Made by a program: the position numbers and the translations under genes | Shown: one piece after another, positions 2,782-17,594 of the stretch | Position numbering within the stretch: the stretch's first letter is position 1 | Layout: the number at the start of each line of letters is the position of its first letter | From: a bacterium | Lineage (GTDB): Bacteria > Zhuqueibacterota > Zhuqueibacteria > Zhuqueibacterales > Zhuqueibacteraceae | Assembly: GCA_044869275.1 (NCBI GenBank) | Contig: JBIOXB010000140.1 | Coordinates: forward strand, 1 to 25,275 | Direction: 5' to 3' | Length of the DNA: 25,275 nt | The notes under the pieces: generated by a model | What the model was told of the DNA's origin: nothing | The model's input: only the letters and a program-made list of their open reading frames with translations | Database searches by the model: none

Positions 2782-3780
2782 TTATTTCTCCTTTTTCTGC
2801 TTCTTTTGCATGATCACACCTGACCATGCTCCGAGCATGGCAAAGATCGTGAACGTGATGCTCCCAAGCGAAAGCAGAGGAATACCTGTCAGGCCATGAC
2901 CGACGGTGCAGCCTCCTGCCAGTGAGCCGGAGGCTCCCAATATGAGCCCGCCGCCGGCGAGTTTCCAGATTGCCACGCCTGAAATGGTTGACCAGTGAAA
3001 CTGGCCTTCACGCGAGGCGGACAAATAGCCGCCGACGGGAATGCCAAAAACAAAAAAGAAATCCCAGCTCAAAGCGCTGCGTTTGGCAATTGCCAACAAC
3101 TCAAGCGCATCTTTGCTCCCGGGCAGAACCGCCATGCCGAAAAATCGACCGGAAAGAGAGGAAACCACCCACGCGATTGTGCCTATTGCTCCAACCCATA
3201 GCCCGGTTTTTCTCCAGTTCCAGCCTTTCTCAGGATTGGTGGGGGATTTCTTCAACAAGAAAAATAGGAGGGCGACAGCAAAAGGCACGCTCATCCACCA
3301 CAGAGGCAGATTAAATAAACTTGCGATGGTCATGGTCTCGACACCACTGTCGCTACCGAGGGATTGTATCCATGTGCGCAAGGGTCTTAACGCGCCGCTT
3401 TCAGTTGTGACGTATCCGATAGTCAATCCGATAATGGCAACGAAAGCGCCGATGCTGCCGCCACCGAGTTTGTACCACACACCACCCGCGCAGCCGCCGC
3501 CCCAATTCATGGCGAGACCAAAGAGAAATCCGCCAAGTGCTGCGCCGAGAGGATAGAATGCGGGTACGGTGAATTTAACGATGCCCAAAAGTTGCAGGAA
3601 TGGCAGCATCAGCATCTGCACGGCAATCGCCAGGAAATAAGCTTTGAATCGAGTGGTGTCCCTCCTGACCAGGAGGTTGCGAAAACCCGAATTCATTCAC
3701 AAGCTGCCGCGATGGGAAGCGTAGCCGAAGGCGACGCCGACTGGCAGGCTCAATATGAAATTGGTGAGAAGATTTGTCAT
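2782..3780 (-). CDS. YeeE/YedE (TsuA-like) sulfur-compound transporter, predicted selenoprotein (Sec28), 332 aa
   Basis: ATG 3780 gives MTNLLTNFILSLPVGVAFGYASHRGSL-UGA-MNSGFRN, in frame with the 304-aa ORF. UGA (3697-3699) sits at the conserved RGxxC Cys. The other two family Cys (GGGCAGG, AGGCTVG) are intact. Confidence 0.88.
3661..3676 (-). promoter_or_regulatory. Bacterial SECIS-like hairpin of yeeE
   Basis: CCUCCU-GGUC-AGGAGG; the loop starts 26 nt 3' of the in-frame UGA and is G-led. Confidence 0.75.
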
Positions 3781-3786
3781 CCGGAT

Positions 3787-7672: not shown

Positions 7673-8346
7673 CTATTGCAAGGGGTGGTTTTCAAAACTA
7701 AATTTAGGCGCCGCGCAACTCAACGCTGTCAACGCCTCCTTCCACTCGGCTTCATCATGGGCTTTGCGAGCGCGGAAATTAATCCCAAGCGTGCCAAACT
7801 TGACGGCGCTGCTCGATTGTGGCGCGCCACTGAAGACGTCTTTTCGCCAGGTTATCTCGAAGCCGGCAAAACCGGCCGACACCACGGTGGCTTGCAACTC
7901 TGCTGCCAGCAGAGCACCGGCAATGACTCCGCATAACCGTGACGAAATTCTACATTACTCATGCCGGCTTCAACGGCAGCGCTCCGAGCTTTGTCCAACA
8001 TCGCCGGGGTCATATCGACGCCGATCACTTGCCCCTTCGGCCCGACCATTTTGGCGGCGATCAAGCTGTCGATTCCTGCGCCGCAACCCACATCCACGAC
8101 ACGCTCGCCAGGCAGAAGCCTTCCCAAACTGAAAGGATTTCCAGTGCCGGCAAAGGACTCGATAGACTTTTCGGGAATGCCTTCCAGCCACTCATCTGAA
8201 TAGCCGACCAGGCGAGCCAAGCGCCGGCCCGTGTGGAAGTGAAAACCGCGGTCGGGATCGAGCGCCACCGTCGCGTACTCTTCTTGAATGGCATGGCGCA
8301 GTTGATCCAAATTGAGATCAAGTTCTGAAGTGATTTGATGACTCAT
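7673..8346 (-). pseudogene. ArsM-like SAM-dependent methyltransferase, internally deleted and frameshifted
   Basis: FAGTGNP and VVDVGCGAGID SAM motif up to AESLPV. At 7915-7924 the sequence switches to another frame reading IAGALLAAELQATVVSAGFAGFEITW. The expected DVVISN and RVLKPGG segment is absent. Confidence 0.8.
7898..7914 (-). promoter_or_regulatory. Orphan SECIS-like hairpin in the methyltransferase remnant
   Basis: CUCUGCU-GGC-AGCAGAG, starting 10 nt into the IAGA codons. Confidence 0.5.
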
Positions 8347-8360
8347 GACACATCCTTAAA

Positions 8361-8948
8361 TCATATTGTTTCTTCCAGCTCAATCGTCACCGGAACCGGA
8401 TTGCGGATGATGTCCAGCACTGGTGAGATTTTTTGAACATGTTCCCACAGTTTCTCCAGCGCCTGATTGGGGGCATTGCATTTGACCTGCACGGCGAAAC
8501 GGACAATTTGATAGCCTGGGCGAACCTGAGGCGACAATCCCAAAAAGCCGCGCAGATCGATTTCGGCTTCGAGGCGCAACCCAAGCTCATTCACGTGGAA
8601 GCCTTGTTGCGTGGCGTGGTAGACGAAGCTCATAATCAAGCATGAACCTAAACCGGCCAAAATGATTTCCATGGCATTCGCAGCAGTTTCGTCGTCAAGC
8701 TGAGTAGAGCGCCCACCGGTTTCAAATGAGATGCTCGGAGCGCGGTGGATGGCCTGGGTTTCGTTGTCATGAGAACAAGGAATCTTTATCTGAACCTGAG
8801 CACCAGTGCTCCATTCGACCTCAGCGCGGAGGGTCACACGCGCCAAAGCCGGATTGGCCTTGATAGCGTCAATGGTATCGCTGAATTGAGCGAAATCGAC
8901 GCCATTGAAGATGTCGGTTGTTGCCGCCTGGGTGATCATGCGCTCCAT
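8361..8948 (-). CDS. OsmC-family protein (start uncertain: 8948 or 8939)
   Basis: NGVD, NAMEIILAGLGSCL, EIDLRGFLGLSPQVRPGY, SPVLDIIRNPVPV. Confidence 0.85.
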   Translation of the reverse strand: MERMITQAATTDIFNGVDFAQFSDTIDAIKANPALARVTLRAEVEWSTGAQVQIKIPCSHDNETQAIHRAPSISFETGGRSTQLDDETAANAMEIILAGLGSCLIMSFVYHATQQGFHVNELGLRLEAEIDLRGFLGLSPQVRPGYQIVRFAVQVKCNAPNQALEKLWEHVQKISPVLDIIRNPVPVTIELEETI

Positions 8949-9258
8949 TCGTGTTTGTTCTGTCACAAGATAAGAATCAACTCTTCCAAAAATCTTCCGC
9001 CGGTCTTCCAGACAGAAGATTTTGACCAAGCTGATTTGAAATTGTCAAGTGAATGAAAAAAGAGAAGGTTACTGCATGAGGTGAAGTCTAGGAGGGCGAC
9101 AAAATCGGCAAAAAAATCTTAATGCGAGATTAGGCTTCCTTAATATGACCAAACCCTGGCCTGCGGCAGGGCAGGCTCAGCAAAAAAATTCTGTGAGCTG
9201 TTTCACTTCCGTGAGCAATTTGTGCTTTATTTGGTTCCGGCTCGTACGGGTTCGAATT

Positions 9259-12200
9259 TTAAAGCGTTCGCATCTGCTTGAGGGCTGAGCGAGCTTGCGC
9301 GACCGTGGTTTCCGCCCCGAGTTTGATAAAGGTGGGCAAAGCGCCGGCAACGAGCCGGCTGGCAGTCAGGTAATCTTTGGGCCGGCCTCTCCGCATGAGG
9401 ACAAAGGCACGAAAGAGATCGCTGCGCGCGATTTCATAATCTTGCCGGATGGCCTGAAATTCTTTCTTCGTTTGTTTGAGCTTGTCAATGGCAGAATCCC
9501 ACTCTTCGAGTAATCCATGCAACATGCCTTGCGCCTGGTAAGTGAGGCCGAGGAAAAGGTGGCTGCCGAAAGCCTTGGCAGATTCCTCCGCCTTCGCCGC
9601 ATAGAAGCGCGCTTTGTCCATATCGCCATTAACGGCGAAGCCCATCGTCGAGATGGGATAAAGCATGACGTTGCAAGTGACGCATAGGCCGTGATTGGCC
9701 GCCACCGCCAGTCCTGCTTCTACCGCCTCACGCACGCCGGCGTAATCGCCTGCTTCCATGCGATTACGTCCCAGCGTCGCATACAAACGCACGAGGCAAT
9801 GCGGCTTCATCATGGCGCGGTCGGCAATGCGCAAGCCCTCGTGCAGATAGCCGCGTGCTTCATCCAAGCGACCAAGTGCCGTGGCTACCACGCCCATGCG
9901 CTGCAGCGCACTCGCCTCGCCGGCAAAGGCCTCGAGTCGGGCATAAAGCGCGCGCGCCTTGCTCAAATTGGAGAGCGCGTCGAGAAAACGGCCTTGGAAG
10001 TATTCGGCGGTACCGATGAAAAGCGTGCACATTGCCAGCGCGCGACTGGCGCCGATATCTTGCGCCTGCTTTTGCATGTGCCGCGCAAATTCCATCGCGG
10101 TTTGATAAGGCTCATCACCATACAGGTGATACTCGCACAGTCAAAGATGGACGTCAGAAACATCGGCGAGATAGCGATTCAAATCGACGCGGCTGAGGCG
10201 CTGGGCTTCGTACTCGAGGCCATGACGCCACTCGCCGAGAGGCACGCAGCAGAGCGCCATCATCTCGTAAGCCTTTGCGGCGTCACCCGACGCGTCTGGG
10301 CCGAGCGCCTCAGCAACACCCAAGCTCTCCCGCGCTATCGCCAGCGCTTCGGCAAATTCATTGCGCTGCCAATGATAATGCGCCTGGGTGTATTGCAAAC
10401 GCACCCATTCCAAATCGCGGGTTTCTGGCGTCAACGCGAGGGCTTCCGACAAATGCCGCCACGCACTCTCCAGATTTCCCGCCAGGGTGTACCGATAAGC
10501 GGCTTTGCGCCTCAGCCGGCGAATATCTAACGTCGCACTTCCGGAAATCGCCGCTTCAAAATGCGCCGCGCTCTCTTGCTCTTTGCCCAGCATACCAAGC
10601 TGATCGCCCAAACTTTCGTGCAACTTGACAGTATGCCGGTCATCATCGAGCTGCAGCGCCTGTGCGTAATAATTGATCGCGACCTCGTGCGCATACAGCG
10701 CCGCGGCGCGATCACCAGCCATAAGAAGATATTTTACCGCCTGCTTGGGCGCGTCGCCGCGGAGGCAATGCTCGGCAAGCGCTTCAACCGGTAACGCACG
10801 ATCATCGCGATACAAAGCCTCCAATATCTTTGCCACTTGTCCGTGCAAATAGCGTTGCCGGGTTTGCGACATCTGCTGGTAAACCGCTTCGTGGAACAAC
10901 GGATGGACAAAGCTGAACGTCAATCCCAATTCCTTCAACAAGTGCACGCTTAGAGTCTCATCGAGCAAATCCAAAATCTCTGCGCTCGGAAGCTGCAGAA
11001 TATTCTCCAGCAAATTCAGGTTGGTTTGCTGGCCGGCGACGGCAACCACTTGCAAAAGCGATTGCGCCTTGGGGGATAAACCGTTCCATTTTTGCGCCAA
11101 TAAGACTTGCAAGGAAGGAGGAAGATAAGGCTTGGTGATCTTACCCGCACGCCAGACACCATCCTGCAGCGTGATCTCGCCGGCTTTCTTCAATTGGCCG
11201 GCCATTTCAACGGCAAAGAGGGGATTGCCTGCTGTAAAAGAAAAAACTTCGTTGGCGAACGCCGCCTCCACCTCCCCTTTCTCCAACGCTTGTTGCAAGA
11301 GTTGCTGATGCTCGGCCTCCGAAAGCGGTTGCAAGAAAATAGTGCCGGCAAGGCGGCCACGATTCAGTGCCGCGAGGAGCGTCGTCAGCTCGGCGGAAAT
11401 CTCCGGCTCGGCGGAACGGCAGGTGGCGACTAGCAAAAGAGGAAAATCAGCGGCGTGGCGCGCCAGATAATTAAAAAGTCCGATAGTGCCGTCATCGGCA
11501 AAGTGCAGATCCTCCAAAATCATCACCACTGGCGTCAAGTCCGCAAGCGCCTTGAGAAAACGTAGCAATCCGGCGAAGAGATAAGCCTGCGCTGCCCCGT
11601 CAGTTCGAGCCGATGGCGCCGGGGCGGATGGCAATTCCGGAATGGCGGCGGCCAATTCTGCCGGAATGAGATGCGCGTGCTGGGGAGAGGTGTTGATGGC
11701 CATGCGCAAAACTTCGACGAACGGACCGTAGGGCAATTCCTTTTCCTGCTCGTAGGCGCTGCCCATCAGCGGCTGATAACCGCGCAATTGCGCCAGATAA
11801 AAAATCTCTTGCGCCAAACGCGTCTTGCCGATGCCGGCCATGCCCTGCAGCAACAACACCTCGCCTTTGCCCTGCGTCAGATGATCGAGAAGCGTTGCGG
11901 CCTGCTTCAGTTCATTTTGCCGCCCCACCATCGGGCTGCGTTTGTGCAGCACCGAAGCCGGTTTTGCCGCGCCAGCCTTTTTCGGCGCGGCCTGCTGCGC
12001 CGATTGAATTTTGCCTTCGCGAATAGTTTGCAAGAGGGCGATGGTTTCTGCGGAAGGCTTGGTGTCGAGCTCCTTCGCGAGAATTTCCTCGCAGCGCTTA
12101 TATTGATGCAACGCCTGTGAGCGGTTGCCCTGCAGCGCAAAGGCGCGCATCAAGCCTTGATGTGCGGTTTCGTCGAGCGGGTCAATGCCGAGCACGCGGC

Positions 12201-12768
12201 GAAAGGCCTCAGCCGCATCGGCAAAATCGCCGGCGTCGATATGCTTCTGCGCGAGGGCGATGAGCAATTCCAAAAACTCCACGCGTGCCGATTCGCGCAG
12301 CCCTTCCGTCCACCTTTCATAAATATCGGAAGGCAGCAAATCTCCCGTGTAGCTTGCCACGGCATGTTGGTAAGAAGAGAGCGTTTTGTTCCGGCGTGCT
12401 TCTTGCGTCAGGTGCTGGAAAGCGTCGAGATCGGTATGCACTTCCGCAGGGGCGGTTAATTTGAGGGTTTCATCTTTGTAAACGAGCAACGCTTCGGGCG
12501 CAGGTCCAGCCGTGGTGGCCTCAAAAGCTTTTCGAATGTAGTGGATGGATTTGTACATCTGCGCTGCCGCCGCGGTGGGATCCAGCTCCGGCCAAAGGGC
12601 ATCAATCGCTTGATCGCGATGCAATTGATGTTTGGGCTTAATGGCGAGTAGCTTCAGCAGGCTCAGCGCCTTTCGGCTCTTGAAGGCAGCTTCGGGTATT
12701 TCCCGTTCTCCCAGATAAAGGCAAAATCTCCCGAGCAGAGAAAAGCAAATGCCGGGTGAGGAATTCAT
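9259..12768 (-). CDS. HTH-BTAD-AAA ATPase-TPR transcriptional regulator (SARP/STAND type), predicted selenoprotein (Sec876), 1169 aa
   Basis: The 875-aa and 278-aa ORFs share one frame, joined by DVHL-UGA-LCEYHLYGDEPYQTA-MEF with no other stop. Walker A GMAGIGKT, Walker B VMILEDLHFAD, BTAD YTGDLLP; TPR-like helices on both sides of the UGA. Confidence 0.8.
10114..10130 (-). promoter_or_regulatory. SECIS-like hairpin of the BTAD regulator
   Basis: AUCACC-UGUAU-GGUGAU; the stem starts 10 nt and the loop 16 nt after the UGA at 10141-10143. Confidence 0.65.
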
Positions 12769-14324: not shown

Positions 14325-14460
14325 AACAATACTCCACATCAAAGATCAACTCCTTGATAAATTGAGATTGACGGCGATAATATCGATGTTACAATTTGAA
14401 TGCCGGGTGAGAGAGACAAATACAGAACGTAATCGCCTATTTTACAACACGGTTGCGTTA

Positions 14461-14868
<408 letters not shown>

Positions 14869-15471
14869 CTAAAGCCAACGTCGTGTTCTTTGACAATATT
14901 TTTGATAATCTTCGCCGTGAGTTTGGCGCAGATATTCTTCTTCCAAATGGACTTGAATTTGCATCAGCGCATCGCCCAATAGAAGCGTGGCGAACGTAAC
15001 CGCATTCGGCAGGATCAGAAAGAAGCTGAGCAGCGTTACGCGCATGCCCAGGAAAATCGGGTTGCGAGACAGCCGGAAAACGCCATGTTGCACAAGTTGC
15101 GTTTTCGTCGCGGCATCGATTCCGATACGCCACGAGTTTCCCATCTGTGCTTGCGCGATAAATGTCCAGACGAGTGAGACCAGCAATAATCCCAATCCAA
15201 ATGACACCAGCACGGATTGCTCAAGCCAACCAATTGGCGTTAAAAACTGATACGCCTTGTTCGAGATGGAATAAAGCATGATAACCAATGTAATCGCAAC
15301 AAGTGTGAGACGAAAAAGCACACCGATAAAATCATGCGCATTGTCGGCCTTGCCGAGTTTGTAGGGGTTGATGCCCGTTCTTTTCCAAACCATGTACGAG
15401 CGCCAGAAAAAAGCGGCGACGAAATACACGATCAAATAAACGGGCAAAAAATATCGCAAGATGGAGTCCAT
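14869..15471 (-). CDS. Isoprenylcysteine carboxyl methyltransferase (ICMT/PEMT) family membrane protein
   Basis: MGNSWRIGID, LVQHGVFRLSRNPIFLG, EEEYL...GEDYQKYCQRTRRWL. Confidence 0.88.
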   Translation of the reverse strand: MDSILRYFLPVYLIVYFVAAFFWRSYMVWKRTGINPYKLGKADNAHDFIGVLFRLTLVAITLVIMLYSISNKAYQFLTPIGWLEQSVLVSFGLGLLLVSLVWTFIAQAQMGNSWRIGIDAATKTQLVQHGVFRLSRNPIFLGMRVTLLSFFLILPNAVTFATLLLGDALMQIQVHLEEEYLRQTHGEDYQKYCQRTRRWL

Positions 15472-15499
15472 GTCTATTTTTCCTGAACGCGCAAACGTA

Positions 15500-15655
15500 T
15501 TATCCCCGTGGCCACCACATGATCACCGCGATACCGATGCAGCAAATGGCGCCGCCAACAATGTCAAAGGTGTCTGGCGTTTTACGATCCACCAGCCAGC
15601 CCCAGAGCAACGATATCACCACAAAGATACCGCCATAGGCTGCGTAGACTCGTCC
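15500..15655 (-). pseudogene. C-terminal half of a YnfA (UPF0060, SMR-like) protein
   Basis: Manual translation [51 protein letters not shown]; the N-terminal half is missing. Not in the ORF track. Confidence 0.85.
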
Positions 15656-15665
15656 GGCGCCCGCC

Positions 15666-16424
15666 TCAAGCCAGATATACTGCTGGCAAAACCACCAGAA
15701 TCAACAGTGTGGAAGTGATGACGCCGAAAACAACGACCGTGGCAAGCGGGCGTTTCACTTCCGCTCCAACACCGGTTGAAATTGCCATCGGAATGAAGCC
15801 TGCGGCATCATTAATGGCTGTCGCCAGCGCCGGGCGCAAACGTTGTTTCGCTGCCGATATGACCGCTTCGGCTAATGGCAATCCTTCATCGCAAAAATTG
15901 CGAATGGCCGCGACGAGCGCTTGGCCGTTCAGCATCGCGATGCCGCTAAGCGCGATAAATCCGATCGCTGCGCTTACACTGAAAGATATGCCGAGAGCCC
16001 AAAGCGCCAACGCGCCACCGATGGCAGCGAAGGGAATGCCGGTATAAATGATGAGCACATCATGCAGGCTGCGCAGACTCAGGTAAAGCAAAAAGAAGAT
16101 GAGCGCCAGTGGCACGACGATCATGAAGCGCCGCTGCGAGCGAATGAGATGCTCGAACTGGCCGCCCCATTCTATGATGTAACCTTCCGGCAGATTCACT
16201 TCTTTTTCGAGGCGCGCCTGCGCTTCGGCGACAAAAGATGCCACGTCGCGGCGCACGCCCACGGCTTCGATCACCTCCAGAACGTTGCGCGTCGGTATGC
16301 CATGCCGCGCGATTTGATCTTGATTTACGACGATCTGCAGAGCTGGCTGGCCGGTGATTTGTTCGCCTGAAACCTGGGCAGCGCCGGGAATGGTCAATAG
16401 AGTTTTCTGGATTTCATCGCTCAA
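15666..16424 (-). pseudogene. Second CzcA/CusA fragment, 5'-truncated and internally deleted
   Basis: EQITGQP..IARHGI..IEAVG is joined directly to VRRDVASFV, whereas intact czcA here has about 70 aa between these points. RLRPALATA present. The 5' end abuts a REP copy. Confidence 0.85.
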
Positions 16425-16534: not shown

Positions 16535-17065
16535 CTAAAAATCATCAAAATTATCTTTCAACTCTTCAGGCGGTTTTTCGCCAAACTTGCACCGATCTTC
16601 TTTCTCTCGAATCGCACGGGTGAAGCTCGACCACCAATAATCTTGCGGATGCGCAACCACACCATGTTTAACCGCATTCCAGTAAACATAAGCTAATCGA
16701 TATTCGAAATCACGATCGCCGCGAATGCAAGTGTCCCAATAATTCCACCACACTTGTCGGGCGGGCGCGCTGTCGAGCCGGTTCAACAGCGTGGCGCTGC
16801 CACCGTGTATGCGCATGAAAATGGCCGGCATGTCTTTGGCGCGTCTGGCTTTGGCAACTAGATGATAGTGATTGTTGAGAATGATCCACGCATCTAGTCG
16901 CCACTCGAAATGCGAGAACCATTTCTCCATCGCCAACCGCACGAACTCTTTGCGGACATCATTGCGCAAGATATGCCGCTTGCCTAAAATACCTCCCGTG
17001 ATAAAATAAATAGCGCCATCGATAAACAGATGCGGCGGATTGTGTGGGTACTTTTTGAATTCCAT
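16535..17065 (-). mobile_element. REP-associated tyrosine transposase (RAYT, IS200-like Y1 HUH)
   Basis: YFIT, AWIILNNHYH (HUH), WDTCIR, YVYWNAVKHG, YWWSS; GGAGG RBS before ATG 17065. Confidence 0.88.
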
Positions 17066-17124
17066 GAGCTTTCCTCCCAGTTTTGTGAATTTAAGAGATG
17101 GGAACAATAGACACCGCAATTTTT

Positions 17125-17594
17125 CGGAGTGCAACGCTTTAGCGTTGTCGCACGAAGATAAACAATTCGGAGTCAAAACGCTTCAACGTTTGGCCGCTGC
17201 AGACAACCGCGCAGCGACAGTAAACCGTCGCACTCCGGTTTTTCGGAGTGCATCGCTTTAGCGTTGCCGTACCAAGATAAACAATTCGGAGTCAAAACGC
17301 TTTGGCGTTTGGCTATTGCAGACAACCGCACAGCGACAGTAAACCGTCGCACTCCGGCTTTTCGGAGTGCAACGCTTTAGCGTTGCCGTACCAAGATAAA
17401 CAATTCGAAGTCAAAACGCTTGAGCGTTTGGCTATTGCAGACAACCGCGCAGTGACAGTAAACCGTCGCAATCCGGCTTTTCGGAGTGCAACGCTTTAGC
17501 GTTGCCGTACCAAGATAAACAATTCGGAGTCAAAACGCTTGAGCGTTTGGCTACTGCAGACAACCGCGCAGCGACGGTAAACCGTCGCACTCCG
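17125..17594. repeat. Four tandem 119-bp REP/BIME-like units
   Basis: CGGAGTGC starts at 17125, 17244, 17363 and 17482. Each unit ends GCA(C/A)TCCG and holds three short palindromes. Confidence 0.92.

Follow-up and report, generated by a model that had tools for sequence, protein, structure and literature searches.

The 25,275-nucleotide stretch of DNA analysed here (contig JBIOXB010000140.1 of assembly GCA_044869275.1, from a bacterium of the Zhuqueibacteraceae; hereafter the window) carries on its minus strand a gene for a large transcriptional regulator whose reading frame is interrupted by a single UGA, which raises the question of whether this codon ends the protein or is decoded as selenocysteine (Sec). 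An earlier note on this DNA had proposed the latter, in a BTAD-AAA-TPR activator of the STAND type. We consider it likely, from comparison with related genes and proteins, that there is one gene, coding for a 1169-residue SARP-NOD-TPR activator of AfsR/MalT-like STAND architecture, and that its UGA876 is decoded as Sec, the insertion itself being a prediction. The comparative tests support the earlier proposal, but a compensated hairpin was not found, nor was selD in the window's genome. The gene and its UGA are placed as follows.

9259 to 12768, minus strand: whole regulator gene, 1169 codons plus a TAA stop with one UGA inside, delimited with orthologues of the same length that contain one TGA.

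10141 to 10143, minus strand: proposed Sec codon UGA, codon 876, with TGA in 6/6 loci, Cys in 95/99 homologues and at least 18 proteins ending just before it.

The frame runs from an ATG at 12766-12768 to a TAA at 9259-9261, and the TGA at 10141-10143, in the context DVHL-U-LCEYHLYGD, is the sole in-frame stop inside it. With translation table 11 the gene appears as two open reading frames, 10141-12768 (875 aa) and 9259-10095 (278 aa), which share a common frame with only this UGA, codon 876, between them, just as the earlier note had described. Its remark that the downstream ATG lacks a clear ribosome-binding site also holds, in that no Shine-Dalgarno-like sequence lies ahead of the ATG at 10093-10095.

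Is the UGA a peculiarity of this genome? A six-frame search of 41 related genomes gave full-length orthologues in three of them (G016, G014 and G007), each containing exactly one TGA. Together with the window's genome (G000) and two metagenome loci (L071 and L072), these make up six DNA loci with the site, and the TGA stands at the identical column in all six, which come from three genera and one metagenome; the occurrence in independent genomes that the earlier note had looked for is therefore found in 6/6 loci, or in 5/5 without G014, which is flagged as unpublished. Among the loci the amino-acid identity of the N-terminal part goes down to 73%, and the synonymous divergence (dS) up to about 1.0. 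The metagenome scan yielded three loci, two of them spanning the site and both 93-94% identical, and a scan of genome contigs returned, beyond the three known relatives, only distant AAA matches. The regulator is patchily distributed, being present in 4 of the 167 genomes of the phylum, and it was not found in G001, a genome of the same genus that is flagged as unpublished. A global reassignment of TGA can be ruled out, since TGA is the commonest ordinary stop in the window's genome, where it closes 1182 of 2276 long open frames.

The same break recurs in protein databases. Ten clusters of 873-880 residues in a collection of 5.8 billion proteins, the window's own included, end exactly at ...DVHL, and an exhaustive HMMER search of 1.84 billion representatives revealed at least 18 proteins, down to 49% identity, that end exactly at column 876. 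The complementary C-terminal fragments (at least 30) start at scattered positions 4-32 residues past this column, and none of those listed includes it. Candidate division KSB1, Calditrichia/Calditrichaceae and Blastocatellia are among the source labels of the truncated forms; the more divergent of these clusters, P0011, P0114, P0133, P0134, P0137 and P0166, are known from protein sequence alone. In contigs of four other metagenome runs, compared at 80% likeness, no variant falls within 10058-10152 among the variants listed, beside which there are 94 further rows. Many divergent metagenome contigs match only a 42-nt core, 10114-10155, and their loose ends continue in frame, for example as ...KGYEEVK. 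A contig from an RNA library covers 10104-10179 at a depth of 2, which is too weak for a claim of expression.

Two other records of the gene were noted. The same RNA-library contig (run X18, record 9) joins 10104-10179 to 10411-10485, skipping 231 bases, or 77 codons, in frame, and at this depth the skip may reflect either a naturally shorter variant or an artefact of assembly. In genome G003 (C17:122119-123314, L006/L040) only codons 1-391 of the regulator are present, with a frameshift near codon 100, and this fragment is probably a decayed copy.

The residue that uninterrupted proteins carry at this column was counted in 99 homologues that span it, taken from protein-database searches. Cys was found in 95 of them, Val in three and Ala in one, the last being a generic TPR repeat alignment. 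This is the Cys that the earlier note had expected in full-length homologues, and it lies in the signature D-x-H-L-C-[LV]-[WAG]-E-Y-H-L-Y-G-D. Two neighbouring residues deserve a place of their own.

10135 to 10137, minus strand: C878, the Cys of U-x-C, specific to Sec forms (6/6 Sec-form loci; 0/99 Cys-form homologues).

10147 to 10149, minus strand: H874, two residues before U876, His in 87/99 homologues.

Position 878 is W, A or G in the Cys forms, and the U-x-C pattern singled out in the earlier note is thus confined to the loci with the UGA. Comparison shows that the UGA takes the place of a Cys almost invariant in a widespread family of Cys-containing proteins, is kept across genera, and is followed by a hairpin (described below) that is conserved at the nucleotide level.

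The codons beyond the UGA evolve as coding sequence. The ratio of nonsynonymous to synonymous substitution rates (dN/dS) is 0.15-0.19 before the TGA, in pairs with about 875 upstream codons, and 0.10-0.14 after it, in pairs with all 293 downstream codons, the pairwise comparisons having dS values of 0.19-1.06. Neither a second stop nor a frameshift occurs in the 293 downstream codons of any locus. By this comparison, the regulator is shown to be under purifying selection on both sides of the UGA, as judged from substitution ratios.

Directly 3' of the UGA lies the element that would be needed for its decoding, a candidate selenocysteine insertion sequence (SECIS).

10113 to 10131, minus strand: candidate SECIS hairpin U-AUCACC / loop UGUAU / GGUGAU-G, its loop 16 nt after the UGA, within the least-variable 33-nt stretch of the gene.

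The hairpin AUCACC-UGUAU-GGUGAU given in the earlier note was located at 10114-10130, with its loop at the spacing of 16 nt that had been claimed. It starts ten nucleotides past the UGA and has 6 bp, or 7 bp when the U-G pair 10131/10113 is counted. In the five loci that extend across this region, the 33 sites of codons +3 to +13, counted from the UGA, include 2 variable ones, where the mean for the gene is 10.3; of 917 such stretches no more than six vary as little, and five of these overlap this spot. In contrast, 8 of the 12 codons directly upstream of the UGA carry synonymous changes. In the bSECISearch description, the bacterial SECIS is reportedly a stem-loop immediately 3' of the UGA, whose small apical loop carries a G close to its beginning and lies about 16-37 nt from the UGA. 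A spacing of 16 nt is typical for these elements. Hairpins of known-family selenoprotein genes served as comparators: that of the AhpD-like gene of the window's genome has 7 bp and a loop GUU 17 nt from the UGA, that of its YedE-like gene 6 bp and a loop GGUC 26 nt from the UGA, and that of selD in the relatives a loop GGU. All of these loops, as well as UGUAU, contain GU.

The full-length protein has the architecture of a large SARP/STAND activator, with a SARP module, a NOD ATPase and a TPR sensor.

12019 to 12768, minus strand: SARP module (residues 1-250), made of an N-terminal OmpR-type DNA-binding region and BTAD (residues 113-250), from the Pfam BTAD match and alignments with EmbR and AfsR.

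11428 to 11931, minus strand: NOD/STAND ATPase, AAA_16 (residues 280-447), from Pfam (E-value 6e-20; 72.8 bits against a cut-off of 32.6).

9262 to 10671, minus strand: TPR solenoid sensor domain (about residues 700-1169), MalT-domain-III-like, from Pfam TPR_12, an AlphaFold2 model and Foldseek.

The BTAD match over residues 113-250 has an E-value of 6.1e-20 and 72.5 bits (cut-off 22.1). Residues 7-303 align with EmbR (2fez, E-value 2.2e-6) and residues 31-245 align weakly with AfsR (8hvr, E-value 4.5e-3); Pfam Trans_reg_C has no match in the regulator at an E-value of 0.001 or lower. The Walker A motif of the ATPase, GMAGIGKT, occupies residues 309-316. In the C-terminus, TPR_12 reaches 49.1 bits (cut-off 30.1), and TPR_MalT, over residues 912-1132, scores 30.6 bits, under the Pfam gathering threshold of 45. 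An AlphaFold2 model of residues 760-1169, built with 72 aligned sequences, is an all-alpha, continuous solenoid with a predicted local distance difference test score of 94.3 and a predicted template modelling score of 0.89. Foldseek matched it to generic TPR proteins, the best global superposition being on MalT domain III (1hz4; TMq 0.60, TMt 0.66), and a search of the ESM Atlas with a natural Cys-form homologue gave generic TPR clusters only. None of the NCBIfam models scores above its cut-off for this protein; the AfsR model, NF053617, gives 44.8 bits against a cut-off of 1430, and for this reason the regulator is not AfsR itself.

Gene callers annotate the two halves separately everywhere, which is what a split gene would produce: the UGA would end an 875-residue SARP-NOD protein, and a separate TPR protein of about 270 residues would be made from the TTG/ATG at codon 892 or the ATG at codon 898, maybe from an internal promoter, with halves that may reassemble. 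This is the best of the alternatives, and we find it improbable. The ATG at codon 898 is kept in 6/6 loci, and, in the available part of the AfsR report, AfsR without its TPR domain still binds DNA and activates in vitro (PMC10936776). However, the second protein would lose residues 877-891 or 877-897, and with them YHLYGD, a motif that precedes the first possible restart codon after the UGA and is common to continuous Cys-form homologues at only 30-40% identity. Nor would it account for Cys exactly at the stop column in nearly all homologues. In the AlphaFold2 model, residue 876 falls midway along a helix (model residues 104-123) within the continuous solenoid, so that a stop or restart at this point would cut a unit of the fold. 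Moreover, the called starts of the downstream fragments (at least 30) scatter over about 29 positions, and codon 892 (10093-10095) is ATG in the window's genome only, the other five of the six loci having TTG.

A sigma-70-like match, TTGACT-16-TATGGT (10144-10117, minus strand), overlaps the UGA and the hairpin. Such a promoter for the downstream half could explain the nucleotide conservation of this spot, but the match covers 9 of 12 positions, and the region holds five sigma-70-like matches where 2.3 are expected.

Can the host make and insert Sec? In the window's genome we found SelA (490 bits), SelB (337 bits against a cut-off of 242) and tRNA-Sec (66 bits against a cut-off of 47). All four carrier genomes have SelB, tRNA-Sec and SelA, and three of them (G016, G014 and G007) also have selD, with a UGA of its own. 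The earlier note's expectation that carriers would hold the Sec machinery is in this way borne out for selA, selB and tRNA-Sec, and falls short at selD in the window's genome. In G016 and G007 selD adjoins selB, and the corresponding place in the window's genome (C86, after 37130) is without it.

A genome-wide scan for in-frame UGA in the window's genome was very noisy, with 610 candidates, three of which were confirmed by Pfam as genes of known selenoprotein families in which the Pfam domain runs across the UGA: CMD/AhpD-like (CxxU), AhpC-TSA (UxxC) and Sulf_transp/YedE. The CMD/AhpD-like gene lies at C4:8062-8661 (L079) with the motif C-H-Y-U, and the AhpC-TSA gene at C169:2660-3283 (L080) with the motif F-G-U-T-F-C. 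The Sulf_transp (YedE/TsuA-like) gene is in the window itself, at 2782-3786 on the minus strand, where it starts upstream of the annotated ATG and crosses a TGA at 3697-3699. Its U30 has the context GSL-U-MNSGFRN, with a hairpin CCUCCU-GGUC-AGGAGG 26 nt further on, and reading through the TGA extends the Pfam match of this known selenoprotein family to profile position 1; G016 (L038) has this TGA too, with an identical hairpin.

With selD absent from the assembly of the window's genome, leaky termination independent of Sec has to be weighed, in which a near-cognate tRNA (Trp or Cys) would read through the UGA at a low level, possibly stimulated by the hairpin, to give a fixed ratio of truncated to full-length protein. 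A conserved UGA, a conserved downstream frame and a 3' hairpin would fit stimulated read-through as well. We judge it a shade less probable even than the split gene: SelB, tRNA-Sec and SelA accompany the regulator in 4/4 carriers and a Sec-containing selD in 3/4, a Cys column in the relatives is the classic Sec/Cys signature, and the hairpin matches the known-family selenoprotein genes of the same genome in its spacing and GU loop. In addition, a Cys at +2 was gained by the Sec forms alone, a pattern that UxC/CxU selenoproteins also show (PMC9312934 Table 1). A pseudogene, or a sequencing or assembly error, is refuted in practice, for although the frameshifted N-terminal fragment in G003 tells us that decay occurs in this family, the TGA is present in 6/6 independent loci and assemblies, with no variant at the site among those listed for the four other metagenome runs, and the downstream frame is intact with a dN/dS of 0.10-0.14 at dS values of 0.23-0.40, which leaves this reading a negligible probability.

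Several observations weigh against decoding of UGA876 as Sec and temper our confidence in it. The hairpin is short and not significantly stable: its minimum free energy is -18.7 kcal/mol (z -1.66), and 13 of 200 shuffled sequences fold equally well. The earlier note had looked for a compensated hairpin, and here its expectation failed, as no compensatory stem change occurs in the six loci and the stem's only substitution (GAT to GAC, G007) costs it the basal A-U pair. Around the site the six DNA loci share 84-93% identity, being close relatives, and their nucleotide conservation is therefore partly due to recent common descent or transfer. In the window's genome, an assembly 94.4% complete, selD was found neither with TIGR00476 (best score 77.8 bits against 125) nor by tblastn with the SelD of G016. 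The presence of SelA in 130 of the 167 genomes of the phylum makes co-occurrence with the Sec machinery uninformative. Finally, three of the 99 homologues have Val at the column, and the thiol is therefore not indispensable to the fold.

If UGA876 is read as Sec, the residue would not stand alone in the sensor domain, where two further elements are conserved.

9799 to 9801, minus strand: H990, at the start of a TPR helix, His in 142/150 homologues and at least 90% conserved in alignment A2.

9673 to 9684, minus strand: C1029-V-T-C1032, an invariant CxxC at a loop/helix N-terminus, Cys in 138/138 at both positions and invariant in A2, with helix boundaries from the AlphaFold2 model.

The earlier note had also pointed to CC and CVTC in the TPR region. 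Both are present (C840-C841 and C1029-C1032), but the CC pair is not conserved, with Cys in only 15/103 and 37/104 homologues. In the TPR sensor, U876 is predicted to form a conserved His/Cys site together with H874, H990 and the CxxC, as we infer from the alignments. The protein search for the Cys-containing family gave 1826 matches at an E-value of 0.001 or lower, many of them generic TPR proteins. When alignment A2 was compared with five genomes (G167-G171; L055, L042, L047, L065 and L061), 9-39 SARP-AAA paralogues were obtained in each, matched through the ATPase region, and the H-x-C ... CxxC motif was present in 0 of the 10 loci fetched from them.

The following mechanism would connect these elements. 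SelB with Sec-tRNA(Sec) would bind the hairpin and insert Sec at UGA876, and failed insertion would leave an 875-residue product that keeps the DNA-binding and ATPase modules and has lost most of the sensor. In the full-length protein U876, backed by C878, may form a putative sensing site with H874, H990 and C1029-x-x-C1032, which would bind a thiophilic metal or metalloid, or react with reactive sulfur, selenium or oxidant species. If AfsR and MalT are a guide, sensing would release the autoinhibition by NOD and TPR, and the SARP module would then activate neighbouring stress or sulfur genes, for example the OsmC-like gene described below. A role in sensing sulfur, selenium or metalloid species is suggested by the conserved His/Cys residues and by the gene neighbours.

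A bolder proposal, which strikes us as rather unlikely, is that the regulator is both a selenium gauge and a selenol sensor. When selenium is plentiful the full-length protein would be a gated activator, and when it is scarce the 875-residue form would be ungated or dominant-negative, which would couple a sulfur/selenium/stress island to the supply of selenium. The island would comprise the OsmC-like gene, the Sec-containing YedE/TsuA-like transporter, the ArsR-rhodanese gene and the SQR-like genes, and the Sec-x-Cys with the His/CxxC residues would respond to reactive sulfur/selenium species or to a soft metal with a sensitivity far above that of the Cys forms.

The candidate target is the most conserved neighbour of the regulator.

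8361 to 9029, minus strand: OsmC-like gene directly downstream of the regulator, candidate target, from Pfam OsmC (E-value 1.3e-15) and its conservation as a neighbour.

An OsmC-like gene also follows the regulator in L072 (82% identity) and in G007 (L077, 47%), and does not in G016 (L038). The window further holds an ArsR-rhodanese fusion, the Sec-containing YedE/TsuA-like transporter, two SQR/FCSD-like flavoproteins, a globin and an RND efflux operon, and upstream of the G016 regulator there are an ArsR-rhodanese gene, a Sec-containing YedE and a DsrE-like gene. This gene context fits, and does not prove, a role in sulfur, selenium, oxidant or soft-metal stress.

Other neighbours were recorded as well. 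Downstream of the G016 regulator and overlapping it (L038, 9449-12148) is a gene for an 899-residue Ser/Thr kinase with TPR repeats, followed by a GAF-sigma54 activator; the kinase next to the regulator recalls the AfsK/AfsR pairing. At 7852-8346 on the minus strand of the window, an S-adenosylmethionine-dependent methyltransferase reading frame aligns with the first half of the Methyltransf_31 profile only and has an odd Cys/Trp-rich tail; L072 carries an 80%-identical copy, and the frame in the window is probably frameshifted or truncated. We considered this ArsM-like methyltransferase as a further selenoprotein and ruled it out, given its non-TGA stop and a frame that looks truncated. Short fragments resembling the C-terminus of an RND pump lie upstream of the regulator at 14339-16424 and 16535-17176, adjoining an IS200-like reading frame in the window, and also occur at L037, L040, L041 and L072. 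G016 has a second copy of the regulator, with only its first 96 codons, beside an OEP-MFP-RND operon. The region around the regulator is suggested to be rearranged or mobile.

MalT reportedly binds maltotriose. Its domain III (1hz4) occupies the same position in a STAND regulator as the TPR domain found here, and the superposition that makes it the best global match is accompanied by a sequence identity of 17%. A closer parallel in domain order is AfsR of Streptomyces coelicolor (PDB 8hvr), which, according to the available part of PMC10936776, also combines SARP, NOD and TPR; there the SARP module sits on direct repeats at the -35 region, and NOD and TPR inhibit it until ATP or a signal arrives. 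By analogy, the regulator may be expected to act in the same way, its SARP module binding direct repeats at -35 and its NOD and TPR inhibiting until ATP or a signal is present. The two proteins are very distant in sequence, and the hosts of the regulator are labelled KSB1, Calditrichia and Blastocatellia, not actinomycetes. In contrast to AfsR, for which the available part of the same report mentions no Sec/Cys site, the sensor of the regulator has H-x-C/U ... H ... CxxC and the UGA.

Nearly all selenoproteins known from prokaryotes are redox enzymes, transporters or chaperones. Those that handle metals in Table 1 of PMC9312934 (UxxC P-type ATPase, CobW-like, MerT, CopZ-like and [NiFeSe] hydrogenase) resemble the regulator in having Sec for a conserved Cys beside other Cys ligands, in the dominance of Cys forms and in a SECIS directly 3', but they are enzymes, transporters or chaperones, with no transcription factor among them. 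The 87 families of this table include no DNA-binding, SARP, STAND or TPR regulator, the only 'regulatory' item being the small FmdB zinc-ribbon protein (PMC9312934). With HrsM/LysR_Se, too, transcription responds to selenium status; these proteins regulate selenium-related genes, and the part of PMC9312934 that deals with them does not call them selenoproteins. A SARP, STAND or TPR regulator is likewise missing from the main text of the 2026 review PMC13188914, from that of BSepDB (PMC13326102) and from the nine new families of deep-Sep as presented in the main text of PMC12013277, and a full-text literature search brought up no paper on selenocysteine together with SARP, AfsR or BTAD. Within the catalogues searched, the regulator very probably represents a true selenoprotein family that had not been listed before, and an unusual one, since it is a transcription activator.

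For annotation, the finding means that at least 18 N-terminal and at least 30 C-terminal half-proteins in public databases seem to belong to one family and to have been split by mistake. It also draws attention to a large Cys-containing family with an unstudied, invariant H-x-C ... H ... CxxC site in its TPR sensor. If the reading of UGA876 as Sec is true, Sec in the sensor domain of a STAND protein would extend selenium biology from catalysis to signal perception, and the gene would provide a natural example of a transcription factor whose amount is governed by UGA recoding. If the regulator should in addition act as a gauge of selenium supply, it would be the first case of a transcription factor with an output controlled by Sec decoding.

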